From Candidatus Omnitrophota bacterium (GTDB lineage: Bacteria > Omnitrophota > Omnitrophia > Omnitrophales > Aquincolibacteriaceae), in the NCBI GenBank assembly GCA_023247055.1, contig JAHFHF010000002.1:16710-80709 (forward strand): DNA of 64,000 nucleotides. Reading direction: 5' to 3'. The translations under genes were made by a program, and so were the position numbers. The notes beneath the pieces were generated by a model, which was not told the DNA's origin, searched no databases, and worked only from the letters and a program-made list of their open reading frames with translations. Positions within the stretch are counted from its first letter, which is position 1; every line of letters starts with the position of its first letter. Of the stretch, positions 9,181 to 9,483 are shown piece after piece.

Positions 9181-9483
9181 TGGTAGCGGGGGCAGGATTT
9201 GAACCTGCGACCTTTGGGTTATGCTTACTACTACAGCTTTCGCTGCTCTGCCAACATCGGCTGATTTGTAGTCTGGACTATACCTTCACCCTTCCATGTT
9301 AGGAGTCGGGTGCCTGCCATCTAGTCTCTACACCTTCCCGCAAAAATTGCGGGCTTGGCTCGGTATTACCATCAGCAGAGGCCGAAGGCTTCACCGAGTT
9401 TGACAGGTTTCGTTCAACCATTACTGGCTGAACAGCCCACTTAGAATTGAGCCCAACGAGCTACCGAGCTGCTCCACCCCGCG
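9181..9483 (-). tRNA. Initiator tRNA-Met (anticodon CAU) interrupted by a group I intron. Exon 1 is 9450-9483, the intron 9224-9449, and exon 2 9181-9223.
   Basis: Exon 1 is CGCGGGGTGGAGCAGCTCGGTAGCTCGTTGGGCT and exon 2 is CATAACCCAAAGGTCGCAGGTTCAAATCCTGCCCCCGCTACCA. Initiator hallmarks: a 1:72 mismatch, A11:U24, and three G-C pairs closing the anticodon stem. CCA is encoded. Confidence 0.8.
9224..9449 (-). ncRNA. Group I intron, IC3-like (Azoarcus / cyanobacterial tRNA-intron type), about 226 nt, no ORF
   Basis: Conserved core blocks GTCAAACTCGGTGAAGCC, ATGGTAATACCGAGCCAAGC and GAAGGTGTAGAGACTAGATGGCA (P7 AGACUA...UAGUC); the 5' exon ends in U33; the intron ends in G (omega-G) before C34. 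Confidence 0.75.

Follow-up and report, generated by a model that had tools for sequence, protein, structure and literature searches.

Organisation of the locus

The minus strand of the window, by which we mean the whole 64-kb stretch of Omnitrophota DNA that was analysed, reads from position 9483 to 9181 as an initiator tRNA-Met(CAU) gene interrupted by a 226-nt intron. Its neighbours, both on the same strand, are genes for a response regulator on one side and a fatty-acid desaturase on the other. The positions of the exons, of the intron helices and of the flanking signals are given in Table 1.

Table 1. Features of the interrupted tRNA-fMet gene and its surroundings (window coordinates; helices also in intron numbering).
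Feature	Window position	Strand	Intron position	Sequence, pairing or basis
Weak sigma-70-like promoter candidate (tentative)	9619..9647	-		TTGCAA-17-TATACT; ~130 nt upstream of the tRNA
tRNA-fMet exon 1, tRNA positions 1-33	9450..9483	-		CGCGGGGTGGAGCAGCTCGGTAGCTCGTTGGGCT; acceptor 5' strand, D arm, anticodon-stem 5' strand, C32, U33; sequence and ARAGORN -i
Group I intron, 226 nt, without ORF	9224..9449	-		CAATTC...GTAGTAAG; omega-G at 9224
Internal guide sequence UGGGCU	9434..9439	-	11-16	Pairs with exon GGCU and intron CA to give P1
P2 hairpin	9412..9433	-	17-38	8-9 bp, GUAA (GNRA) tetraloop; MFE fold
P3, 5' strand	9401..9407	-	43-49	Pairs with 9319-9313 (intron 131-137)
P4-P5 domain	9359..9398	-	P4, 52-57 with 86-91; P5, 61-82	P4, 9398-9393 with 9364-9359; P5 hairpin, 9389-9368; also in MFE fold
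P6/P6a hairpin	9333..9358	-	92-117	Alignment
P7, 5' strand GACUA	9322..9326	-	124-128	Pairs with 9280-9276; pseudoknot with P3
P3, 3' strand	9313..9319	-	131-137	Alignment
P8 hairpin	9288..9311	-	139-162	Alignment and MFE fold
P7, 3' strand UAGUC	9276..9280	-	170-174	Alignment
P9 three-way junction	9227..9272	-	178-223	P9 stem, variable P9a (9264-9247) and P9b (9245-9234)
tRNA-fMet exon 2, C34 A35 U36 to encoded CCA end	9181..9223	-		CATAACCCAAAGGTCGCAGGTTCAAATCCTGCCCCCGCTACCA; sequence and ARAGORN
Intrinsic-terminator-like hairpin and T run	9133..9172	-		13 pairs, 8 of them G-C; starts 9 nt past CCA

The two tRNA halves, 226 nt apart, read exactly as the first-pass annotation had described them, and when joined they were folded by ARAGORN into a 77-nt tRNA-Met(CAU) cloverleaf. 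When introns were allowed, the same program run on the genomic sequence reported a tRNA-Met with a 226-nt intron and the junction gggct/cataa; in its default mode it missed the interrupted gene altogether. The anticodon loop CUCAUAA could be restored by three different junctions, but only the one between U33 and C34 gives an exon ending in U together with an intron ending in G, so that the unique junction and the intron limits proposed earlier agree both with this rule and with the intron mode of ARAGORN. The U33/C34 junction was common to about 80 homologues from which both exons were recovered, and exon 1 differed little or not at all from that of about 80 interrupted tRNA-fMet genes, in both cases among the matches listed in our genome scan.

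The spliced tRNA carries the marks of an initiator that had been pointed out before, namely the C1xU72 mismatch, A11:U24 and the pairs G29-C41, G30-C40 and G31-C39 (sequence and ARAGORN drawing). The meaning of the 1:72 mismatch, of A11:U24 and of the three G-C pairs is known from E. coli tRNA-fMet. Judged by these marks, the spliced product is a bacterial initiator tRNA, and its methionylation, its formylation and its use in the P site are predicted. No second tRNA-Met gene was found in the 64-kb window with ARAGORN or Rfam, which agrees with the earlier statement that this is the only initiator tRNA copy there.

Signals for transcription were looked at on both sides of the gene. The promoter candidate matched at 9 of 12 positions, and 0.5 such sites were expected by chance in the region; related loci had strong TTGACA-17-TATAAT promoters localised nearer to exon 1 than in the window. 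Upstream of the gene there is also an exact 16-nt direct repeat, AGATTTCGTCGCGGGG, at 9541-9526 and 9492-9477 (minus strand), with copy starts 49 nt apart. It comprises 9 nt of the leader followed by tRNA nucleotides 1-7, from the acceptor strand, and two copies were observed with 0.08 expected by chance. The CGCGGG of the upstream copy can form a 6-bp hairpin with a CCCGCG that begins 14 nt past the repeat. Shuffled sequence folded as well as the leader bearing the repeat (z=0.03), in which Rfam gave no match with E below about 0.3. Only one of 10 related Omnitrophota and Planctomycetia loci (L092, at -66) had an upstream CGCGGGG. The repeat may be the scar of a collapsed duplicate tRNA gene.

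In other parts of the window we recognised rpoB (55629-59441, minus strand), identified by its Pfam domains and by the names of its homologues. A 1347-aa ORF overlapping the 3'-end of rpoB is probably rpoC, judging from its size and position only, the two together covering 51589-59441 (minus strand), and a tRNA-Trp(CCA) gene is found at 62672-62749 (minus strand). The RpoB protein shared 90% identity with its counterpart in 'Omnitrophica bacterium GWA2_52_12', the next ~100 relatives were almost all Omnitrophica/Omnitrophota by name, and on this basis the window was assigned to Candidatus Omnitrophota.

Structure and predicted splicing of the intron

The Rfam model RF00028 (Intron_gpI) matched positions 9459-9252 of the minus strand over its full length (1-253), scoring 58.0 bits where the gathering cutoff is 50 (E=4e-12, computed over the whole window), bearing out the group I assignment of the first-pass annotation. 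A profile of homologous introns matched only one place in the window, this intron, with E=6e-56. These values, together with the presence of the same architecture in more than 100 genomes, argue against a chance resemblance. As the window comes from a metagenomic assembly, the interrupted gene might instead be an assembly chimera; however, an identical sequence was found in two other metagenome assemblies from different samples (ENA ERZ27276474 and Logan SRR14366787), and an assembly artefact was therefore discounted. Chimera and chance resemblance, taken together, are exceedingly improbable.

In order to evaluate the fold, the intron was aligned with 31 ORF-less homologues (n=32, MAFFT). A P1-P9 model including the P3/P7 pseudoknot, the fold that had been suggested as a check, gave standard pairs in 86.7% of the cells of the alignment as compared with 77.4% in shuffles, and none of 500 shuffles reached the observed value. 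Double-sided changes occurred in 31 pairs, and when the 3' partners were slid by 1-3 columns as a control the pairing fell to 28-47%. The unconstrained MFE fold of the intron alone (-88 kcal/mol, z=-5.4) recovered P2-P6a, P8 and P9/P9a/P9b.

The core helices P3, P4, P5, P6a, P7 and P8 were 94-100% paired, with compensatory changes. In P3, 94% of the cells were paired and four of the six pairs had compensatory changes; at the closing pair of P4, 22 sequences had G-C and 10 had U-A, and P5 was 95% paired. P6a showed compensatory changes in all five of its pairs (97% paired), while P7 and P8 were both 100% paired, the latter with two compensated pairs. Pair 128:170 of P7 appeared as G-C (14), A-U (7), U-A (6) and C-G (4). 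P7 is the helix expected in group I introns to hold the guanosine-binding site. Compensatory changes extended to all five pairs of P9a and all four of P9b, the latter hairpin being capped by a GAAA tetraloop, and the P9 domain was also present in the MFE fold. For P2 only 35% pairing was obtained on the alignment, a figure unfit for covariation as the MAFFT register differs in most sequences.

At the 5' splice site, the P1 pairs G-C, C-G and U.G were invariant in the 32 aligned sequences, the U.G wobble being formed by U33 with intron G13 in every one of them. The P1 loop of the window intron is minimal (8 nt). P10 could be formed by guide positions U11 and G12 with the exon-2 bases A35 and C34; since the CA of the intron and the CA of exon 2 would both pair with these two guide bases, a simple exchange from P1 to P10 between the two splicing steps may be envisaged. 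The intron ends in G at 9224. The invariance of this terminal G across the family was partly imposed by our scan pattern, which required G before CAT, and is not independent evidence.

The absence of an ORF and of a homing endonuclease, claimed earlier, was confirmed in the intron, whose longest ORF has 40 codons, and in the 64-kb window, where the sole tblastn match of the family endonuclease was at chance level (E=2.4).

All the core blocks attributed to IC3 introns by the first-pass annotation were present. The IC3 intron in the tRNA-Ile(CAU) gene of Azoarcus sp. BH72 is the structural model for small IC3 ribozymes. Like the window intron it is small, with about 200 nt, and has two GNRA tetraloops; it differs in its host tRNA (Ile2) and in its insertion after U36. 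Its J3/4-P4 (GUCAAAUUCGG), P4'-P6 (CCGAGCCAAGC) and J6/7-P7-P3' (AAGGUGUAGAGACUAGAYGGCA) blocks are, we presume, near-identical to those of the window intron. In our comparison, which covered homologous tRNA-fMet introns classed as IC3 by the survey in PMC13011429, the blocks were conserved, and this part of the claim stood. The IC3-type class of the window intron would follow from its 80%-identical homologue and from the other fMet 33/34 introns classed as IC3 in PMC13011429 Table S5.

Taken together, these data point to a self-splicing IC3-type group I intron whose removal would yield a functional initiator tRNA, a reading to which we give a probability of about 0.93 and in which catalysis is deduced from conservation. 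The precursor would be transcribed up to the terminator just past CCA. In P1, the guide UGGGCU would be paired with the GGCU that closes exon 1 and with intron bases 1 and 2, with the U33.G wobble at the 5' splice site, and the P3-P9 core, with the P3/P7 pseudoknot and the GNRA loops L2 and L9b, would fold into the catalytic centre, helped by putative tetraloop contacts. A free guanosine bound in P7 would then attack after U33. Next, the terminal G (9224) would take over the guanosine site while the guide held C34 and A35 in P10, and the 3'-OH of exon 1 would attack after the terminal G. Ligation of the exons would restore the CUCAUAA anticodon loop in a 77-nt product reading GGGCUCAUAACCC, and the mature tRNA would serve as initiator.

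It could be argued that the intron is catalytically dead and the gene a tRNA pseudogene, with an intact tRNA-fMet elsewhere in the genome, given that the visible sequence covers 64 kb of that genome and that the upstream promoter is weak. This is very unlikely, because every core helix is intact and the nearly invariant positions of the family are all kept, and because the helices show clear signs of purifying selection for pairing throughout the family. Besides, both exons are perfect, with all the initiator marks, and a terminator-like hairpin follows downstream. The interrupted tRNA-fMet gene of Synechocystis has a transcription start site of its own, and its tRNA shows up in transcriptome data (bioRxiv 10.1101/2024.01.06.574455). 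A self-splicing intron in a working initiator tRNA gene is therefore the reading we prefer. An extension of it, which is speculative and in our opinion most improbable, is that, if this were the sole initiator gene, all initiation would hang on a guanosine- and Mg2+-dependent ribozyme, splicing could act as a nucleotide-status checkpoint on the supply of initiator tRNA, and the 16-nt upstream duplicate (9541-9526) might take part in folding or processing of the precursor.

The tRNA-fMet 33/34 intron family

A group I intron in tRNA-fMet was described in cyanobacteria in 1994 (Biniszkiewicz, Cesnaviciene and Shub, as cited in PMC3610870, PMC8450103 and PMC1995217), the hosts named by the papers that cite this work being Synechocystis PCC 6803, Scytonema and Dermocarpa (PMC3610870, PMC8450103). 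The Synechocystis intron is described as self-splicing in a preprint that refers to the 1994 description (bioRxiv 10.1101/2024.01.06.574455). More recently, a 2026 survey of 4,934 complete genomes reported 333 tRNA group I introns in 18 phyla (PMC13011429). The first-pass annotation had implied that such introns are rare; in contrast, the survey regards position 33/34 of tRNA-fMet as a common and well-characterised insertion site (PMC13011429). Its entries for this site come from many phyla, among them Omnitrophota, with a 252-nt IC3 intron in GCF_004102945.1 (PMC13011429 Table S5).

This last intron has the phylum, the gene, the site and the ORF-less state in common with that of the window, to which it is 80% identical over 214 aligned positions. 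It comes from a different species and differs in having a longer P6 insertion and an anticodon stem reading GCAAGG/CCTTG rather than TTGGG/CCCAA. The cyanobacterial introns share the host gene, the 33/34 site and the ribozyme core with the window intron, and homologous 244-nt introns with the same junction were found in Scytonema hofmanni UTEX 2349 (L120) and Scytonema PCC 10023 (L010). In contrast to these 244-nt copies, the window intron has 226 nt; its 8-nt P1 loop corresponds to an extension of ~45 nt in the cyanobacterial copies, it lacks the I-Ssp6803I ORF carried by the 655-nt Synechocystis intron, and its core is ~70% identical to theirs, the hosts being Omnitrophota and Cyanobacteria, respectively. 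As the published Omnitrophota intron at fMet 33/34 is 80% identical, the window intron adds one more member to a known family of which this phylum already has a recorded example.

The extent of the family was evaluated by scanning one genome per species for G in place of T33 directly before CATAACCC and the conserved 3' half of tRNA-fMet. At least 120 matching stretches were obtained. Among the 120 listed, 107 matched the family profile, all of them at the tRNA-fMet 33/34 site, and in about 80 an exon 1 ending in GGGCT was localised 193-695 nt upstream. The remaining 13 contained no group I intron according to Rfam and were rejected: some were intact tRNAs (G33 being present in one), others were loci truncated at block ends or isolated 3'-half copies. 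The window intron matched more than 80 family members by blastn, with E from 1e-40 to 1e-6; its nearest relatives, among the matches listed and the published Omnitrophota intron, were 76-80% identical.

The family was present in at least 15 phyla among the matches listed. Going by record titles, Cyanobacteria contributed 36 of the 107 profile-matching loci, including Scytonema hofmanni and Trichodesmium, followed by Nitrospirota (19), Acidobacteriota (14), Omnitrophota (8 loci), Rhodothermales (6), Chloroflexota (5) and Planctomycetia (3). One to three loci each came from Proteobacteria, Methylomirabilota, Patescibacteria, Bacteroidota, Desulfobacterota, Actinomycetota, Elusimicrobiota and Auribacterota, and three could not be assigned to a phylum by their labels (two MAGs titled 'uncultured bacterium' and a contig that is probably mis-binned).

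Two size classes were found among the introns. Those of 635-695 nt contained, within the P1 loop, an ORF of ~150-190 codons that starts close to intron position 20 and is a clear homologue of the PD-(D/E)XK homing endonuclease I-Ssp6803I (PDB 2OST, E=1e-64; Pfam PF11645). Through these long variants all the introns can be linked with the tRNA-fMet intron family of Synechocystis, and as most members lack the endonuclease ORF (our scan and PMC13011429) its absence is no bar to membership. Introns of ~635-695 nt were present at L003, L007, L018, L024, L025, L028, L033, L034, L035, L048, L053, L060, L061, L062, L068, L092, L096, L097, L103, L119 and L121. Endonuclease ORFs were translated from Acidobacteriota, Nitrospirota, Proteobacteria, Methylomirabilota, Desulfobacterota, Planctomycetia, Patescibacteria, Omnitrophota and Auribacterota, and the Rhodothermales and Chloroflexota introns probably carry this type of endonuclease too, to judge from intron length only. 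The 514-nt intron of L005 contained a shortened copy. In the 2026 survey, the I-Ssp6803I-type endonuclease of fMet introns was reported for Cyanobacteriota only (PMC13011429).

Several individual loci showed peculiarities. At L032, L042, L059, L071, L075, L094 and L122 the intron mode of ARAGORN miscalled tRNA-fMet as tRNA-Leu(CAA/CAG) with an intron at 36/37, because the intron begins with CAA, an example of how such genes come to be wrongly annotated. Six Actinomycetota loci (L109, L110, L113, L116, L102 and L086) were copies of the tRNA-fMet 3' half beginning exactly at C34, with neither a group I intron nor a 5' half within 2.5 kb; two of them (L109 and L110) lay 4.2 kb apart on one Gaiellaceae contig. 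These copies may be attachment-site repeats of integrated elements. The exons and the intron length (244 nt) of L073, from a MAG labelled Acetobacteraceae, matched those of Nostoc loci, L073 fell among these loci in the distance tree, and the contig is probably mis-binned from a cyanobacterium. Finally, 'Omnitrophica bacterium GWA2_52_8' had an intron-interrupted tRNA-fMet 3' half on two different contigs (L008 and L069); there may be two interrupted copies in this genome or two strains in the bin.

Origin of the intron and significance

The first-pass annotation had suggested lateral transfer of the intron into this lineage. A recent acquisition would be compatible with the distribution of the family, which occurs in at least 15 phyla and is missing from many genomes (our scan; PMC13011429), with the endonuclease-bearing and potentially mobile copies present in Omnitrophota MAGs (L092 and L096) and in many other phyla, and with the source of the single nearest intron, a Planctomycetia MAG (L054) and not an Omnitrophota. 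However, at least eight Omnitrophota loci in seven MAGs, as well as GCF_004102945.1, share the intron site. A neighbour-joining tree (201 core columns, without bootstraps) grouped the introns mostly by host phylum and placed that of the window inside an Omnitrophota/Planctomycetia cluster, where its nearest neighbours were at distances of 0.18-0.23 (L054 at 0.18 and the Omnitrophota copies at 0.20-0.23, among the matches listed). In addition, no endonuclease gene or remnant was found among the intron ORFs or by tblastn of the window, the GC content of the intron (50%) is close to that of its flanks (52%), and with the nearest relatives just 76-80% identical no recent donor is visible. In the 2.5-kb flanks of six desaturase orthologues (74-83% identical) there was no tRNA, and the neighbourhood was not conserved; this comparison bears on neither view.

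We therefore consider a recent lateral acquisition by this Omnitrophota lineage unlikely. Long residence of the intron in this bacterial group would fit the sequence data at least as well, so that the suggestion of lateral transfer is not supported. Transfer between phyla in the more distant past, with endonuclease-bearing copies as the driving force, is plausible. As it lacks a homing endonuclease gene, the intron would no longer be autonomously mobile, and it may persist since an exact deletion seldom arises and splicing leaves the gene in working order.

The biological weight of the locus itself is small: it is one more ORF-less copy in a family that was first described in 1994 and has lately been surveyed in many phyla, Omnitrophota among them. 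Its practical value is in the annotation of interrupted tRNA-fMet genes. According to the tRNAscan-SE 2.0 paper, group I introns account for the apparent absence of fMet or Ile2 tRNAs from 36 genomes. As default tRNA finders miss the gene, a genome such as this one would be scored as having no initiator tRNA, which lowers its apparent completeness. For the family, its presence at one site in at least 15 phyla, with the I-Ssp6803I-type endonuclease in many phyla beyond Cyanobacteria, gives both intron and endonuclease a broader reach than the survey of complete genomes had reported (PMC13011429), and this may be more useful than the locus itself.
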